From Octopus vulgaris (Eukaryota): a DNA stretch of 64,000 nt. Where the stretch lies: contig OX597815.1 of the NCBI GenBank assembly GCA_951406725.2, positions 205,034,001 to 205,098,000 of the forward strand. Reading direction: 5' to 3'. Numbering within the stretch: position 1 is the stretch's first letter; each line of letters starts with the position of its first letter. A program made the position numbers and the translations under genes. The notes below the pieces were generated by a model. It worked only from the letters and a program-made list of their open reading frames with translations, did not search any database and was not told the origin of the DNA. Positions 2,151 to 41,462 of the stretch are shown piece after piece.

Positions 2151-2337
2151 AGATCGTTAGCTCCTACACGCATTTTTTTTCTGTCCTTGTTTCTTTCTGT
2201 GTATCTTTCTGTCGAATAGCGTAGGCTCGAAACGTAAAAGACTTGTTCCATTTCTATTCCTGAGCGCTATACTACTACATTTGTTTGTTTGTACTCCACC
2301 TGCCTTCGTCTTTTGTTTATTTTCGTAAACCTTCCCG

Positions 2338-2339
<2 letters not shown>
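2151..2339 (+). mobile_element. Short Penelope-derived element H1 with minimal hammerhead (2204-2241)
   Basis: TCTTT-CTGTCGA-A-TAGC-GTAG-GCTC-GAAACGT-A-AAAGA; ends CTTCCCGTT at (TA)n; same family as 40473, 40788, 23769 and 61276. Confidence 0.8.
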
Positions 2340-7426: not shown

Positions 7427-8207
7427 GGCGGCGAGCTGCCAGACACGTTAGCACGCCGGACGAAATGCTTAGCGGTATTTTGTCTGCGTTACGTTGTGAG
7501 TTCAAATTCCGCCGAGGTCGACTTTGCCTTTCATCCTTTCGGGGTCGATAAATTAAGTACCAGTTACGCACTGGGGTCGATGTAATCGACTTAATACCTA
7601 TGTCTGTCTTTGTTTGTCCCCTCTGTGTTTAGCCCCTTGTGGGTAATAAAGAAATAGGTATTTTGTCTGCCGTTACGTTCTGAGTTCAAATTCCGCCGAG
7701 GTCGACTTTGCCTTTCATCCTTTCGGGGTCGATAAATTAAGTACCAGTTACGCACTGGGGTCGATGTAATCGACTTAATACCTATGTCTGTCTTTGTTTG
7801 TCCCCTCTGTGTTTAGCCCCTTGTGGATAATAAAGAAATAGGGATTTTGTCTGCGTTACGTTGTGAGTTCAAATTCCGCCGAGGTCGACTTTGCCTTTCA
7901 TCCTTTCGGGGTCGATAAATTAAGTACCAGTTACGCACTGGGGTCGATGTAATCGACTTAATACCTATGTCTGTCCTTGTTTGTCCCCTCTGGGTTTAGC
8001 CCCTTGTGGGTAATAAAGAAATAGGTATTTTGTCTGCCGTTACGTTGTGAGTTCAAATTCCGCCGAGGTCGACTTTGCCTTTCATCCTTTCGGGGTCGAT
8101 AAATTAAGTACCAGTTACACACTGGGGTCGATGTAATCGACTTAATACCTATGTCTGTCCTTGTTTGTCCCCTCTGTGTTTAGCCCCTTGTGGGTAATAA
8201 AGAAATA
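7427..8207 (+). mobile_element. SINE family A with four tandem ~183-bp bodies
   Basis: One head at 7427; units start at 7474, 7657, 7841 and 8024; TATTAATAAA on both sides. Confidence 0.92.
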
Positions 8208-9164
8208 AGTATTAATAAATACCAAATAAGTACTCATAGAACATTGGAATGAGATGTTGTAACATTGATTCCTCTCCTAAAATACACTTCAACGTAAATG
8301 AATCGAAAATACAAAGCATACCAGTTGTTGCTGGTTTAACCTCTTTGCTCTGTTACGCTCGTAAAATATGAATGCAAAAGTACCGAGAATACCTTGCGAA
8401 CGGGGAATTGTTTCACTTCTGAAATATTTACAAAATAAGTATTTATAGAAGTGCTCACATGAGGCATTCAAAAACTAGGTGCGGATGAAAGTTGTTCAGA
8501 TCATATGAATATAACTTTAGGGGGAGGGGTTGAAATGTAGGTCCTGGATTTTGCGGTACACTCGGCGAGGCGGCATTTAAGGTTCAGTTTGGTTGGAGTG
8601 CAGAGAGTGGATTTGCTTAGTACCCTACCAGTCTCTTATTCCCATTTTATTTTCCTTTATGCATTCTTTTTTTTTTTTTTTGTTCCTTTCCATATTTGTC
8701 TTTGAAACCCTTTCGAAAATATTTCGACCTTAAAACTGGGTGGCGATGGGATTCTTTTATGCAGACGATCCTGTTTTTCTATATAGAGTCAATCAAGGGG
8801 CTGTTATAAAAAAGAAAAATATTTAAAAAATATGAAGCCTTGAAAAGAAGCCAGAAGGTGAACAGGTTCAGCAGAGAAATATCCGTGCGTTGTAAGAGGG
8901 GTAAGTAGGGGTTAGCTTTAACTCCCAATTGATTTAGAGAAAAATGACCTTGACATGCACTGACCTCGCATATACAGCAACGGACCTGAAAATTTTATTT
9001 ACTCTATGGCAGAGGCAATGTTTATGATATATATACGTGTGTGTGTGTGTAATATATAATGTATGTTTATCTTAGCATACACATATATATATATACATGT
9101 ACATATACATACATACATACACACATACAGATATATATATATATATACATATACACACACATAC

Positions 9165-18189: not shown

Positions 18190-18670
18190 TCATCATTGTT
18201 CGACCGTGGTCGAGACAATGGAATTTACCATGCTACCCCAGACTTCACAGTCCATCATGGCATTACGGAGGTCCTGTTGCTGGATGCCTGTATCCCTGGA
18301 GATTACATCAGGGTAGGAGAGTGTGCGCCCTCTGGTATTGCGAGTAGATGGCTTCCAGAGGAGAAGAGTAGAAATTACCTCTTTTTCAGCTCTACAACAA
18401 TGTCCAGCAAACTGGACTCTCTTACCTTTCACAAGAGATGACACTGGTGGTAGTTTCCCATATATTTGCATTTTGGTTGGATGGCGCCTCCACGAGAGAT
18501 TTTGAGCTCTCATAAGGAGGCGAGTGTAGGTTCCATCCAACCGCCTCTCAAGCTTCTTTGATAACGTCCAGGTTTCTAAGCCATATAGTAGAATTGGTTC
18601 GACTGTGGCTTTGAAGATTTCAAGTTTGAAGTCTCTACTTAGATTTGATGACCAGATCTTATGCATGTCA
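18190..18670 (-). pseudogene. 5'-truncated RTE-clade LINE (ORF C-terminus)
   Basis: KLEIFKATVEPILLYGLETWTL...RVQFAGHCCR...GRTLSY...AMMDCEVW is typical of the RTE post-RT region; stop followed by a short TGA tail. Confidence 0.88.
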
Positions 18671-19149
18671 TTACATATTGGTGGAACTTAAAAATTTAAA
18701 CAGCCACGAGGTTAAAACTCAGCTGGCCAGATATTGTTGTGTGGGACCACAAGGAAAAGATATGTTCTCATGTGGAAATCAGTTACCCTCTGGACACCAA
18801 TATGGTTAGAAAAATTCAAGAGAAAGAGGACATCTATGGACCATTGATAAGGAGTTTGCAAATCCAGTACCGAAGATACATTTTCACCTTCACACCTATT
18901 ATCATTGGGATAACAGGATACATACCAGCCAGTTCTGGAGCCAAGTATGGCTGAACTTGGGTTCTTGGGGAGATGATGCAAATCCTTAATTCATACACTT
19001 CAAAGATCACGATATCAGGGACTATGAAAATCTGCAAGACCTCAAGATTTAAAGGATGGAAAACAAAACAAGATGTTTTCCTTCACATCTTTGCTACCAG
19101 GAAGGTGGTTAGTCAAAATTTATTCTAAATTAAAAGAGAAAGAGATCAA

Positions 19150-23768: not shown

Positions 23769-23940
23769 TAACGGGAAGGTTTACGAAAATAAACAAAAGA
23801 CGAAGGCAGGTGGAGTACAAACAAACAAATGTATTAGTATGGCGCTCAGGAATAGAGATAGAAAAAGTCTTTTACGTTTCGAGCCTACGCTCTTCGACAG
23901 AAAGATACACAGAAAAAAACAAGGAGAGAAACAAGGAGAG
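23769..23940 (-). mobile_element. H1 element with minimal hammerhead (23868-23905)
   Basis: Minus strand TCTTT-CTGTCGA-A-GAGC-GTAG-GCTC-GAAACGT-A-AAAGA. Confidence 0.82.
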
Positions 23941-35249: not shown

Positions 35250-35625
35250 CTTAGCGGTATTTCGTCTGCGTTACGTTGTGAGTTCAAATTCCGCCGAGGT
35301 CGACTTTGCCTTTCATCCTTTCGGGGTCGATAAATTAAGTACCAGTTACGCACTGGGGTCGATGTAATCGACTTAATACCTATGTCTGTCCTTGTTTGTC
35401 CCCTCTGTGTTTAGCCCTTGTGGGTAATAAAGAAATAGGTATTTCGTCTGCCGTTACGTTCTGATTTCAAATTCCACCGAGGTTGACTTTGCATTTCATC
35501 TTTTCGGGGTCGATAACTTAAGTACCAGCTACGCACTGGGGTCGATGTAATCAACTTAATCCCTTTGTCTGTTCTTGTCTGTCCCCTCTATGTATGTTTG
35601 GCCCCTTTTGGGCAGTAAAGAAATA
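35250..35625 (+). mobile_element. Family A SINE tandem dimer
   Basis: Two bodies with the same junction as the 7427 array; 12-bp TSD ACTAATCATTTG (35238-35249, 35626-35637). Confidence 0.9.
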
Positions 35626-36076
35626 ACTAATCATTTGTGTTAATTAATGATTGACAGTATTTAGACATATACATTTTCTCTTTCAATTAAAAAATATACA
35701 GCCATTCACATTAGATTTATTTGTCATCCCACGCCATGACTAAATGCACCACGTGCGTTTTAAACGACTCACATTACAGATTATTTGGCTCAGGCGAGGA
35801 TTTGGTTGTTATCGTTACCACGTGAGTAGAGACTAAGGTTTTTAAGGTATTTTGGACAGATCAGATAGTCTGCTTCCTTGTTTATGTATTGGGGAAGATC
35901 AAAAAGATATGATACACACACACACACATACAACACACACACACACAACACACGCACAAAACAAACACACACATAAATACACGCGCACGCACACACACAT
36001 ACATGCATAATTACATATACACACATGCATATATATATACGTATGTATGTATATATATATATATATATATGTGTGG

Positions 36077-37159: not shown

Positions 37160-38187
37160 TATATATTTCTTTACTACCCACAAGGGGCTAAACACAGAGA
37201 GGACAAACAAACGGATTAAGTCGATAATATCGACCCCAGTGTGTAACTGGTACTTATTTAATCGACCCCGAAAGGATGAAAGGTAAAGTCGACCTCGGCG
37301 GAATTTGAACTCACAACGTAGCGGCAGACGAAATACGGCTAAGCATTTCGCCCGGCATGCTAAAGTCTCTGCCAGCTCGCCGCCTTATATAGATATAGAT
37401 TTCCCAGTCGATTTGAAATAAAGTTCTGGACATAATGATAAATAACCAAAGTTGTAACTTTTGGTTTTTCCAAAATACTTATTCTAAAATTAAGACAAAT
37501 GTAGAGCGATCACGAGCCAATTGTTGAACAATTGCTCTTCCTTTACTTAGACATCCGACCTTGACAACAACTTACCACTTTTCTAACAATACACAAACCA
37601 GAGAGACTAAAATAAGGAAGGACTCGAGATCGCCCGCATTGAGCCGAAGACCGTTCCCAAACCACCACCCCCTCACGAAAATAACAATAAATTAGTGAAA
37701 ATTATCTGCCCCCACCCCCAGCCACCCAACCACATATCAAATATAAGATATTGCCCATCTTCCTCTTCATAAATTGATAAGACAACACAGTTTGTATCCA
37801 TATCATTTTTCTTTCGACAAATGTAAAAGATTAACACTATCTTAATGGTGGCAGTTTATCCGCTCCCTTTTCAGTCATCACGAGCCTTCCTTTCCCGCTC
37901 CTCCACCCCACCACCCCGCTTCAGAAGAAACATTGCTCTAGTTCAATGGTTCTCAACAGGGATCCATATGGCCCTTTGTGGTGGTAGTGGGGAGGCATAT
38001 AAGATCTTGTTGTTAAAATTTATCTCCGCAGGAGAGGCTGTGTGGTAAGTAACTTGCTTACCAACCACATGGTTCCAGATTCAGTCCAACCGCGTGGAAC
38101 CTTGGGCAAGTGTCTTCTTCTATAGCCTCGGACCGACCAAAGCCTTGTGAGTGGACTTGGTAGACGGAAACTGAAAATAAGTCCATC

Positions 38188-38218
<31 letters not shown>

Positions 38219-38224
<6 letters not shown>

Positions 38225-38552
38225 CAAAGAGGGTCTTTGCAACACGTTGCTAGACCACATACCGAAAGTATTAGAAATAGCAGCCAGAGGACTGCTATTT
38301 CCTTTACTACAAAAATATGTCTCCACAGACAACAGCATTTATGTAACTCATTATGTGGCAAAAAACGAAGAAAAGCAACGAAATCAAACAGTCCACGTTT
38401 TTCTTCGTTTTTTGCCACATAATGAGTTACAAATACTGTTGTCTGTGGAGACATATTTTTGTAGTAAAAGAAATAACAGTCCTCTGGCTGCTATTTCTAA
38501 TACTTTCGGTACGTGGTCTAGCAACTTGTTGCAAAGACCCTCTTTGTTATAA
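38219..38552. mobile_element. Foldback element / MITE, near-perfect palindrome
   Basis: Arms of ~156 bp (TTATAACAAAGAGGGTCTTTGC...GCAAAGACCCTCTTTGTTATAA) around a ~23-bp spacer. Confidence 0.9.
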
Positions 38553-38648
38553 TTATATAAACTTTTACCTAAATATGGTCCTTTTCATACCGAAATACTA
38601 CTTGGGAAATTTGTTGATTTTATTAAATTAATTATATTTCACCCTTTA

Positions 38649-38700
<52 letters not shown>

Positions 38701-38703
<3 letters not shown>

Positions 38704-39493
38704 GTACAGGACGTCACCAGATGTGTAAACAAACTGAAGTACGAAAACAAACAAGTTAAAATACGCAAACGACGAGAGAAAATAGAAAACAGGACACGTA
38801 AACGGGGAACGACCCTTCATCAGTTGTCGGCTGTCTATCTACTCCTCATTTCGAGCATTCATCGACAATATGAGTCTTCAAAAACAGTTCCTCCCATAAA
38901 TTCCAAAAACAAATTTTGGATTTATGGAGGGTCAGTGTTGGGAACAAAAACAGGACAGTGGAGAAATACAAGGAAACCGAATGAAAACAAGCATGGAGGG
39001 TCGTTAGACCAGAACGAGACGAAAATAGTGAATGCTGGGAGAAATATTTTCTTTAAAAAGAGAAAAGATAGAAGAGAGAGAAAGAAAACCTCCAGTCCTT
39101 AGAACGTCGTGCAGGAAAGAAAGATGGTCACGTGAGGAAAAGAAAGATGGACGATGGCCACATGTGAGCAAGAGAGAGAGAAAAAGAGAAAGAGGGGGAT
39201 AGAGAGAGAGACAGACAGACAGATAGAAAACGGTGAAGGAAAGAAAAAGAGAATTAGAGAGCGATAGGGGAAGTAAACAGTATAGAGTAGAGTCGCATCA
39301 ATAAGGTTGAGATAAAGTTACTAGGAAATGGATGCGTGGCGTTCGAGGAGTCGATAGACAGACGACAACTGATGAAGGGTCGTTCTCTGTTTACTTGTCC
39401 TGTTTTCCATTTTTCTCTCTCGTTGTTTGCGTATTTAACTCGTTTGTTTTCGTATTTCATATTGTTTACACAGTTGGTGACGTCCTGTACCCA
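38701..39493. mobile_element. Penelope-like non-coding element with inverted terminal repeats (38701-38847 / 39345-39493), flanked by (TA)n
   Basis: TGGGTACAGGACGTCACC...GGTGACGTCCTGTACCCA; diverged ~147-bp inverted arms; hammerhead motif overlapping the left arm. Confidence 0.75.
38807..38874 (-). ncRNA. Hammerhead ribozyme, non-circularly permuted
   Basis: CUCAU-A-UUGUCG-au-GAAUGCUC-GAA-AUGAG-(15 nt)-CGACAA-CUGAUGA-A-GGGUCGUUC. Stem III CUCAU/AUGAG and stem I UUGUCG/CGACAA are perfect. Confidence 0.8.
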
Positions 39494-39497
39494 TATA

Positions 39498-39588
<91 letters not shown>

Positions 39589-39592
<4 letters not shown>

Positions 39593-40406
39593 TTTTTATA
39601 TATAAAGAACGTGAAATACAGGAAGTGACAAACACGGAACACAGACAAATCATTCGAAGCCTTCAATCTTCAGTCAGACACCGAATCATCATAGCAAATT
39701 TCGGCTGTTCAATTCTGATATTTGCTCCAACTCGGCCAGCCCCAAGAAAAAAAACTAAGCTGTAAGCATTAGATTTCTTGGTAGAAGACAAGAATGTAAA
39801 CGCACGAGACGGATGTAAATACGAGAGACGAAAACGAAATTGAAAACGGTAATGGTTAAACAAAATATAACGGTGGTTGTCTTACGACTTTAGACCAAAT
39901 GAGACAAAAACAACAACAACATGGCAGCAGGCGTAGAAATAATTACCTTTTCGGTAGAGGGGACACATACACATGTTGGCGAGATACGATCGCCAACGGA
40001 ATGGTTGAGAAGCAGCAGGTTGCAGGGGAGAGAGAGAAAGAGAGACAGAGAGAGAGGGAATCAAAGAGGGTGGAAGGCAGGGGATAGAATCAGTCAGTGA
40101 CCAAGAGAAAAAGAGAAAGAAGGGATTGAGGAGGATGGGAGGAAGAGGGGGAAGAAACGAGGGCGCCAAAATAGTTTGGTCAAGAAGCAATGATGGATAG
40201 GAAAGTATAGATGTCGTGCAGAGTTTAAAATTGTGATAAACAAACGGGGGGGGGGTGCACGTAACGCCGCAATAATATAGGGATAAATTTTTTATATGTA
40301 AAGAACGTGAAATACAGGAAGGGACAAACACGGAACACAGACAAATCATTCGAAGCCTTCAATCTTCAGTCAGACACCGAATCATCATAGCAAATTTCGG
40401 CTGTTC
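39589..40406 (-). mobile_element. Penelope-like non-coding element with partial direct terminal repeats (39589-39710 / 40285-40406)
   Basis: Near-identical ~122-bp direct repeat at offset 696; the left copy continues into a complete hammerhead. Confidence 0.75.
39658..39726 (-). ncRNA. Hammerhead ribozyme, non-circularly permuted, 5-nt insert after A9
   Basis: AGCAAAU-A-UCAGA-(7)-AGCC-GAA-AUUUGCU-(14)-UCUGA-CUGAAGA-uugaa-GGCU. Stems III (7 bp), I (5 bp) and II (4 bp) are all Watson-Crick. Confidence 0.75.
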
Positions 40407-40472
40407 GTATGTATGTATGTATGTATGTATGTATGTATGTATGTATGTATGTATGTGTATATGACGCCATGA

Positions 40473-40661
40473 TAGATCGTTAGCTCCTACACGCATTTTT
40501 CTCTCCTTGTTTCTTTTCTGTGTATCTTTCTGTCGAAGAGCGTAGGCTCGAAACGTAAAAGACTTGTTCTATTTCTATTCCTGAGCGCCATACTAATACA
40601 ATTGTTTGTTTGTACTCCACCTGCCTTCGTCTTTTGTTTATTTTCGTAAACCTTCCCGTTA

Positions 40662-40700
<39 letters not shown>

Positions 40701-40738
40701 CGGGAAGGTTTTGTTTATTTTCGTAAACCTTCCCGTTA

Positions 40739-40789
<51 letters not shown>

Positions 40790-40977
40790 CGGGAAGGTTT
40801 ACGAAAATAAACAAAAGACGAAGGCAGGTGGAGTACAAACAAACAAATGTATTAGTATGGCGCTCAGGAATAGAAATAGAACAAGTCTTTTACGTTTCGA
40901 GCCTACGCTCTTCGACAGAAAGATACACAGAAAAGAAACAAGGAGAGAAAAAAATGCGTGTAGGAGCTAACGATCTA
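40473..40977. mobile_element. Two H1 elements tail-to-tail (40473-40660 plus; 40788-40977 minus), each with a minimal hammerhead (40525-40562; 40886-40923)
   Basis: Near-perfect inverted ~190-bp arms converging on (TA)n with a small internal foldback at 40698-40738. Confidence 0.88.
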
Positions 40978-41160
40978 TCATACATACATACATACATACA
41001 TACATACATACATACATACATACATACATACATACATACATACATACATACATACATACATACATACATACATACATACATACATACATACATACATACG
41101 TATGTATGTATGTATGTATGTATGTATGTATGTATGTATGTATGTATGTATGTATGTATG

Positions 41161-41191
<31 letters not shown>

Positions 41192-41462
41192 TGGACACAA
41201 GTCCTTCTGTCGAACAAAACTAATGATTAAAGAAAAACAATATAATGTCTCAAAGCAGAAAATATACTTTAGACAATGCAGATCTTGATAAAGGAAAATG
41301 TGCGATAGCCACTGTTGGAACGTATCTAACTGTATATATGACCGTTCAGAAATAACTTGAGCGCTACACTAGTGGTACACTAACAGCTGTGCTGTAGTGG
41401 CATTGACGAAATATACCAACTCCAACATCTGAAGAAAGTCGCTCACTATCACTAACTGAAGG

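Follow-up and report, generated by a model that had tools for sequence, protein, structure and literature searches.

Element A and its direct repeat

The window, by which we mean the whole stretch of 64,000 nucleotides of Octopus vulgaris DNA that was analysed, contains on its minus strand a 696-nt element preceded by a partial copy of itself, in a cluster of similar insertions. Self-alignment of the window shows that 39589-39710 and 40285-40406 are identical at 120 of 122 nucleotides with an offset of 696, as the original prediction held, and self-BLAST gives the pair E = 6e-57. Both mismatches (39602/40298 and 39626/40322) are in the tail located 3' of the predicted ribozyme. Similarity ends sharply at 39589/40285 and at 39710/40406, where a (GTAT)n tract starts, and no third copy of the 122-nt repeat was detected in the 64-kb window by self-BLAST. 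The parts of this insertion, here called element A, are as follows.

39589..40406, minus strand: element A, a probable Penelope-like partial tandem insertion (122-nt 5'-truncated copy plus 696-nt main copy)
40285..40406, minus strand: upstream 5'-truncated partial copy (pseudo-LTR), starting 8 nt after the predicted cut (cut+8)
39790..40284, minus strand: pyrimidine-rich body
39659..39789, minus strand: predicted split-core, non-circularly permuted hammerhead of 131 nt with six helices
39589..39658, minus strand: 3' tail, ending 130 nt from the predicted cut
39493..39589, no strand: (TA)n and then (GA)n microsatellite flank at the 3' end
40407..40456, no strand: (GTAT)n flank at the 5' end, also the left flank of an inverted pair of family X copies

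C and U together make up 67% of the element A unit, whose body has no other copy in the window. Partial tandem copies are well established for Penelope-like elements, and the partial repeat by itself is ordinary Penelope anatomy. This hallmark, a pseudo-LTR made by a partial copy that is either in tandem or inverted and 5'-truncated, is present in direct form in A and in inverted form in a second element, B, and is absent from a third, C (both described below). A microsatellite target without a clear target-site duplication is a further Penelope hallmark, and at element A no such duplication is seen between the (TA)n(GA)n and (GTAT)n flanks. The proposal that A is a retrotransposed, Penelope-like partial tandem, inserted in microsatellites and with a hammerhead-type cut site at the expected base, is supported.

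A reverse transcriptase plus GIY-YIG frame was not found: neither the longest frame of A or C nor a frame overlapping B has a Pfam match, as expected of a non-autonomous or truncated copy. The idea that the cut-site strand is the end of a GIY-YIG or reverse transcriptase frame was rejected, as the frames are short, stop-ridden and without Pfam match.

Predicted ribozyme

Cleavage at UH is established hammerhead chemistry. The RNA of element A would fold with its parts in the 5'-to-3' order helix IV 5' strand, hairpin V, stem II 5' strand, helix T 5' strand, stem III 5' strand, UH and cut, stem I 5' strand, stem II 3' strand, GAAA, stem III 3' strand, helix T 3' strand, stem I 3' strand, CUGANGA, helix IV 3' strand. 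These predicted parts have the following positions.

39782..39789, minus strand: helix IV 5' strand; partner 39666-39659, directly after the core
39742..39781, minus strand: hairpin V with an 8-bp stem, adjoining the 5' strands of helix IV and stem II without a spacer
39737..39741, minus strand: stem II 5' strand, starting with G10.1; partner 39707-39703, just before GAAA
39728..39736, minus strand: helix T 5' strand; partner 39688-39680
39714..39726, minus strand: cut-site block
39693..39707, minus strand: GAAA block
39688..39693, minus strand: kink-turn-like junction leading from stem III to helix T
39667..39678, minus strand: stem I 3' strand and core block

The cut-site block comprises the stem III 5' strand (39726-39720), H17, which is A at 39719, and the stem I 5' strand (39718-39714), so that the predicted cut falls between 39719 and 39718. 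The GAAA block is made up of the stem II 3' strand (39707-39703), GAAA (39702-39699) and the stem III 3' strand (39699-39693), and the last block of the stem I 3' strand (39678-39674) and the core CUGAAGA (39673-39667). Next to the core, stems I, II and III have 5, 5 and 7 Watson-Crick pairs when the upstream strand is used for stem II. Helix IV has 7 of 8 pairs and one U.U, and helix T, the equivalent of the stem I-II interaction helix, has 9 pairs, 4 of them G-U. A9 (39667) and G10.1 (39741) are thus on separate strands bridged by helix IV and hairpin V, and not joined within 1-2 bases.

The upstream partial copy lacks the cut-site strand, as had been claimed, and only the (GTAT)n microsatellite lies 5' of it; it is also without the 5' strands of stem II, helix T and helix IV and without hairpin V. 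It keeps the 3' strands of II, III, T, I and IV together with GAAA and CUGAAGA, all lacking their partners.

At the junction of stem III and helix T in A, a 3-nt bulge (39693-39691) is followed by GA (39690-39689) opposite GA (39727-39726). A kink-turn consists of a 3-nt bulge and then tandem G.A and A.G pairs between two helices, and we take the junction in A to fit this definition, as the Naiad_Obim and Naiad_Ovul sequences discussed below presumably do too, by eye. Read in this manner, stem III of A is trimmed to 6 bp. Elements B and C do not fit the definition; by eye, their III/T junction is presumably an AGUA/GAA-type loop.

Two further loci and controls

A search of the window on either strand, covering each of the six possible orders of the three hammerhead blocks with as many as 6 bases permitted between core and stem II, gave three loci. 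Each lies on the minus strand and has the order cut site-GAAA-CUGANGA, with predicted 3' products beginning at 39718 (A), 38868 (B) and 51547 (C). The first of these, obtained here by a separate search, is the very base at which the original prediction had the 3' product start. No circular hammerhead of types I-III emerged from this search at the site in A. The two further loci have these features.

38808..38936, minus strand: element B, predicted six-helix ribozyme, cut before 38868, core CUGAUGA
39345..39492, plus strand: element B, inverted 5'-truncated partial copy, starting at cut+21
51492..51622, minus strand: element C, predicted six-helix ribozyme, cut before 51547, core CUGAAGA

No partial copy was found beside element C. 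A 69-nt inverted duplication (51291-51359 and 52111-52179, 98.6%) surrounds this element and is apparently captured flank, not element sequence.

The hammerhead core (C3 U4 G5 A6 N7 G8 A9, G12-A15 and U16 H17, following the consensus given in PMC3088659) is complete in all three loci, which span 131 (A), 129 (B) and 131 nt (C). Helix IV, hairpin V and the upstream strand of stem II adjoin without a spacer in each of them, and the helix IV strand directly follows CUGANGA. The bodies of A, B and C have nothing in common beyond pyrimidine runs. The sequence itself shows the core bases, the six helices and, with changed pairs, the repetition of both in three elements that differ in sequence.

Both descriptors, for the six orders and for the six helices, were written after the sequence had been seen. 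Among 200 block-shuffled windows the order cut-GAAA-CUGANGA was matched 0.05 times on average, and none had two or more matches; the 16 pairs of A were reached by none of 5000 shuffles of its unit. The six-helix descriptor has 3 matches in the real window versus 6 in 500 shuffled ones. When the upstream 110 nt alone were shuffled, the observed number of pairs was regained in 1, 10 and 6 of 2000 trials for A, B and C respectively, and the loose six-helix minima were passed in 166, 389 and 245 of 2000. Relaxing the core by one mismatch gave no fourth locus in the window, and 60 shuffled windows contain about 7 matches of this relaxed kind. Bacterial and archaeal genomes, scanned for an exact 27-nt match, gave none.

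In helices I-V of A-C, counted outwards starting at the core, 82 of 84 pair cells are standard and 20 of 28 helix columns change on both sides, in a table that leans towards the model because three sequences are aligned by helix position. Weak points are the U.U in helix IV of A, one G.G in stem II of B, and a helix T that is weaker in B and C and has two possible registers. Nested folding, which cannot represent pseudoknots, assigns the helices of A mean pair probabilities of 0.85 (IV), 0.91 (V), 0.24 (T), 0.27 (III) and 0.00 (I), and the constrained model lies above the minimum by 4.8 (A), 11.3 (B) and 1.4 kcal/mol (C).

The structure might have no catalytic role, being a product of chance or a dead relic. 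This is what a post hoc descriptor, the disfavouring of the active fold by nested folding, and the mismatches in A and B could be taken to suggest; the shuffle controls, the two-sided changes just described and the intact cores in distantly related Naiad records from the consulted parts of PMC8557442 speak against it, and we regard it as improbable, with the proviso that single copies may still be dead.

At gathering score, Rfam has no hammerhead match in the whole window, and at E values up to 10 no hammerhead family is among its 111 matches in 38000-41500. An Rfam match of box C/D type at 39716-39669 (E 0.84) was set aside as weak, reflecting only the bulge and the GA motif.

Comparison with Naiads

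Naiads lack canonical hammerheads, and some carry cores or half-cores that fit no descriptor, according to the sections of Craig et al. 2021 (PMC8557442) used here. We compared the elements by eye with Naiad consensus sequences, non-systematically, in three of the about 20 parts of File S5 (54 consensus sequences) and in motif matches: matches 15-47 of 62 for one core spelling, 1-24 and 31-43 of 43 for a second, and all 23 for a third. Within this portion of the file, the six-helix layout with an intact core is seen in 7 consensus 3' regions, 5 of them independent. Numbers of pairs, by eye, are as follows.

Naiad_Amil: IV 8, V 6, II 6, T 9, III 13, I 6
Naiad_Anas: six-helix layout with intact core
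Naiad_Plae: IV 5, V 8, II 6, T 9, III 6, I 5
Naiad_EuTe: IV 5, V 8, II 6, T 5, III 10, I 5
Naiad_Obim and Naiad_Ovul, two octopus families: IV 7, V 7, II 6, T 5, III 5, I 6, with a kink-turn-like junction
Record preceding Naiad_Plae (Naiad-2_Movir by list order): IV 5, V 9, II 6, T 7, III 6, I 4

In the same portion, and likewise by eye, the motifs of Naiad_Aacu and Naiad_Esco are damaged, none was seen in the Ppla, Dcar and Omin Naiads, and the Bfor Naiad and two records near parts 16-17 look like other variants. Five places near parts 13-16, apparently in nematode Naiad records, show by eye an intact core in type CSG order (core-cut-GAAA) and carry a long I-II interaction helix. Type CSG was earlier known from two metagenomic sequences, as reported in PMC10085705.

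The elements in the window are probably linked to Naiads by this shared RNA architecture, as read by eye; no homology of reading frames in A, B or C to Naiads was found, and the starts of the A-C bodies have a faint likeness to Naiad C-termini that is too weak to use. Naiads form partial tandems and inverted 5'-truncated copies and have a (TA)n insertion bias, as is also true of the elements described here. Unlike Naiads, which consist of an N-terminal endonuclease, a CxC linker and a C-terminal reverse transcriptase, A-C have no ORF and no shown sequence match. Their bodies are C/U-rich, in contrast to the octopus Naiad 3' UTRs in PMC8557442, and the consulted sections of that report describe no Naiad ribozyme fold.

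Proposed split core and alternative folds

Elements A-C have in common with hammerhead types SGC and CSG the sequences CUGANGA, GAAA and UH, the pairs G10.1-C11.1 and A15.1-U16.1, and pseudoknotted stems I-III, and in both sets a helix connects stems I and II at their outer ends (helix T in A-C). The order cut site-GAAA-CUGANGA is that of type SGC (all as described in PMC10085705). The difference is that block C, which comprises the stem I strand, the core and the stem II strand, is uninterrupted in type SGC and split in A-C, in which the stem II 5' strand is located 5' of the cut and A9 leads into helix IV. In the sections of Eckert et al. 2023 (PMC10085705) drawn on here, the three hammerhead blocks are taken as indivisible, block C not being interruptible, and non-circular hammerheads come from environmental sequence data only, apart from one weak bacterial candidate. 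Like element A, the minimal type I hammerheads of Penelope elements have their ribozyme in the terminal repeat region, but they are circularly permuted and nearly lack stem III (Cervera and de la Pena 2014, PMC4209133), whereas the present elements are non-circular with a stem III of 5-7 pairs. Those type I hammerheads carry an unpaired base at the 5' start of stem II, which shows that the step from A9 to 10.1 tolerates an insertion (PMC4209133).

We consider it probable (about 0.7) that the RNA of element A is a split-core hammerhead of a Penelope-like element, probably a Naiad, cut between 39719 and 39718, and, jointly with this, that element A, lying in an octopus microsatellite tract, represents the 3' part of such an element or a non-autonomous derivative. 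The fold would be a non-circular hammerhead (SGC/CSG) opened between A9 and G10.1, and would fall outside the six defined block orders. Its stem II 5' strand would lie upstream of the cut, with two extra helices bridging the gap, and helix IV stacked on hairpin V would hold the two halves of the core block together. Such an opened core is likely to be active in the family as a whole, and less so in copy A with the U.U in its helix IV. A literature search that covered few subscription papers found no prior account of the split-core topology or of permuted Naiad hammerheads, nor, in the literature searched, any test of a core interrupted at the A9/G10.1 step. The literal core patterns used in the earlier hammerhead search, as given in PMC10085705, match none of the three loci, and this may be why the topology was missed.

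An ordinary type SGC hammerhead could be drawn for the same RNA by taking stem II from the downstream strand (39661-39658 in A) after a 5-nt insertion, with IV and V as alternative or inhibitory structures. Type SGC is an experimentally proven fold (PMC10085705), and a downstream stem II of 4 pairs can be formed in all three loci, with insertions of 5, 1 and 1 nt. However, the insertion of 5 nt that it demands in A compares with at most 1-2 nt in the known alignments shown in the consulted part of PMC10085705, and a stem II whose 5' strand comes from the region ahead of the cut removes this anomaly. Half of the pairs in the downstream stems of B and C are G-U, and all three loci use that strand for helix IV. 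By eye, the downstream strand in Naiad_Amil, Naiad_Plae and Naiad_EuTe cannot pair beside GAAA, and the upstream strand forms 6 Watson-Crick pairs in these File S5 records. We regard the ordinary SGC fold as improbable.

The split-core ribozyme might act as a monomer or together with a second RNA. In the monomer, the kink-turn at the III/T junction would provide the sharp bend that is needed, turning helix T back along stem III so that a single molecule could fold. Alternatively, the same ribozyme would work as a dimer or in trans, with the core module at the base of the T+III helix of one RNA docking on the cut-site loop of another; a lone copy would then be slow, leaving uncut RNA to serve as template. 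Helices T and III are joined on both strands, and in the File S5 record of Naiad_EuTe they are, by eye, just one bulged base apart, an arrangement not easily explained by a monomer. Dimer action is reported for Penelope and retrozyme hammerheads (PMC4209133; PMC7229834), and a dimer fits a main copy of element A made from uncut RNA. Against this are signs of a monomer that bends back at the III/T junction, kink-turn-like in A, Naiad_Obim and Naiad_Ovul and a 7-nt bulge in Naiad_Amil (File S5 records). We think action as a dimer or in trans rather unlikely.

A wider scenario for the split-core ribozyme can be put forward tentatively, its four parts being held jointly and at clearly less than even odds. 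First, an active hammerhead with a core discontinuous at A9/G10.1, a seventh natural arrangement, would be carried by Naiads and derived elements of no fewer than four animal groups (cnidarians, an acanthocephalan, a crustacean and octopuses). Second, nematode Naiads would have the intact CSG form, from which the split core is derivable by one circular permutation. Third, the short 3' cleavage product would be the template of the pseudo-LTR. Fourth, the octopus kink-turn, possibly bound by a host protein of the L7Ae family, would gate cleavage.

Retrozyme model

The suggestion that element A is a retrozyme processed into unit-length RNAs of about 700 nt is not supported. The insertion runs through an intact cut site, and a linear 696-nt monomer extending from cut to cut therefore cannot be its template; there are about 1.2 copies of the unit, and as a circle it folds like shuffled sequence (z = -0.16). 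The free energy of the circular 696-nt unit is -106.6 kcal/mol versus -105.5 +/- 6.9 in shuffles, of which 28 of 60 are as good, and 46% of the unit is paired, as in shuffles.

A modified version has the 696-nt cut-to-cut monomer circularising and being reverse-transcribed more than once round. A circle would account for a copy that runs through the cut site with a period of 696 nt, but it is no more stable than shuffles, it has no 5' end and so leaves the start at +8 unexplained, and B and C have no direct repeat. The metazoan retrozymes described in PMC7229834 are tandem repeats of 170-400 nt that are highly self-paired and have type I ribozymes. Like non-LTR retrozymes, element A is apparently non-coding, hammerhead-bearing and Penelope-related, and its GC content of 0.428 compares with less than 45% (PMC7229834; bioRxiv 10.64898/2026.07.22.740005, in the parts used). 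Unlike those short, head-to-tail, self-paired type I units, it is 696 nt long, is present in about 1.2 copies and is not of type I. This circular retrozyme model seems implausible.

5' ends of the partial copies

The partial copy of A was predicted to start 8 nt downstream of the cut, and it does. That self-cleavage set this 5' end is a further claim, for which the evidence is suggestive only: the partial copies of A (+8) and B (+21) both start 3' of the cut, but these are only two cases and neither begins at the cut itself. If starts are modelled as uniform, the chance of one falling within 0-8 nt is 0.013-0.045, and that of two falling within 0-21 nt, a range chosen afterwards, is jointly about 0.001-0.01. 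In the type I family of the same window (family X, below), all five copies examined start 44-108 nt upstream of their own cut, and none stops at 0-21 nt.

These boundaries could also have arisen by ordinary 5' truncation, by a stall of reverse transcriptase at the pseudoknot, or as a later junction produced by the neighbouring inverted insertion or by slippage of the microsatellite. Penelope-like insertions are commonly 5'-truncated (PMC8557442, in the sections used), the boundaries are off the cut by 8 nt in A and 21 nt in B, and the chance given above for a single start is itself compatible with truncation. Moreover, the +8 junction of A adjoins a microsatellite common to the neighbouring inverted insertion, the (GTAT)n flank being mirrored on the far side of that inverted pair. 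The closeness of both partial copies to the cut on its 3' side and the different behaviour of the type I family argue in the other direction. We put an origin unrelated to cleavage a little short of an even chance, and regard cleavage-set 5' ends as an evenly balanced proposition.

If cleavage did set the ends, the partial copy would be reverse-transcribed from an RNA with its 5' end at the cut, with the loss of 8 nt, a step that has less support than the fold. The template might be the upstream part of a tandem transcript cut at its first ribozyme and at no other, or else a free 3' product of 130 nt acquired by template switching, which would also cover the inverted copy of B. The main copy would come from RNA that was uncut at that site, or circular.

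Precedents in other elements point both ways. The HDV-like ribozyme of R2 is a case in which the self-cleavage site fixes the 5' junction of the inserted copy; in Drosophila the cut coincides exactly with the junction, and this ribozyme occupies the 5' end of the element (PMC3774820, in the part used). Element A differs in both respects, with 8 nt separating the junction from the predicted cut and a ribozyme close to its 3' end. In the Poseidon elements of Anolis, insertion did not require hammerhead cleavage, and none of the reads had its end at the cut (PMC11167929).

Other elements in the window

Family X consists of Penelope pseudo-LTR copies with a minimal type I hammerhead.

40472-40659, plus strand: family X copy
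40789-40978, minus strand: family X copy
23771-23916, minus strand: family X copy
61277-61487, minus strand: family X copy
2151-2338, plus strand: family X copy

Two of these copies form a tail-to-tail inverted pair beside element A. The four copies returned by the search have U at core position 6, an unusual deviation. An endonuclease remnant at about 62250-62600 on the minus strand, which we take to be GIY-YIG-like, is followed by a C/U-rich tail leading to the family X copy at 61487. The remnant has no Pfam match, and its region near 62360-62560 matches an Octopus bimaculoides UniRef protein with an Ig-domain name at 64-66% identity. No other remnant of a Penelope protein was found in the window; this one belongs to the C-terminal endonuclease type and leads into the type I family.

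A second family of minimal type I hammerheads is located at 44382 (plus), 50350 (minus) and 59754 (minus), with C at core position 4 in all three. By eye, 50430-50577 and 50989-51134 are an inverted pair of repeats that contain CUGAAGA, a long stem II and GAAA and may be a Hydra-type pseudo-LTR. An interspersed repeat of 184 nt, presumably an octopus SINE-like repeat, forms head-to-tail arrays at 7474-8213 and 35256-35629 and has many dispersed copies. Fragments resembling the C-terminal regions of non-LTR retrotransposons are at 18193-18687 (minus), which has a weak DUF6451 match below the cut-off (E 0.0013), and at 42391-42747 (plus).

Implications

If the split-core reading is true, a natural core open at A9/G10.1 would break the assumption that hammerhead blocks are indivisible, and it would place non-circular hammerheads in animal genomes. 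A split core could also explain why Naiads, an abundant group, seemed to lack hammerheads, which is the puzzle of cores and half-cores noted by Craig et al. 2021. Finally, the predicted cut site makes it testable, from existing genomes, whether ribozyme cleavage shapes the pseudo-LTRs of Penelope elements.
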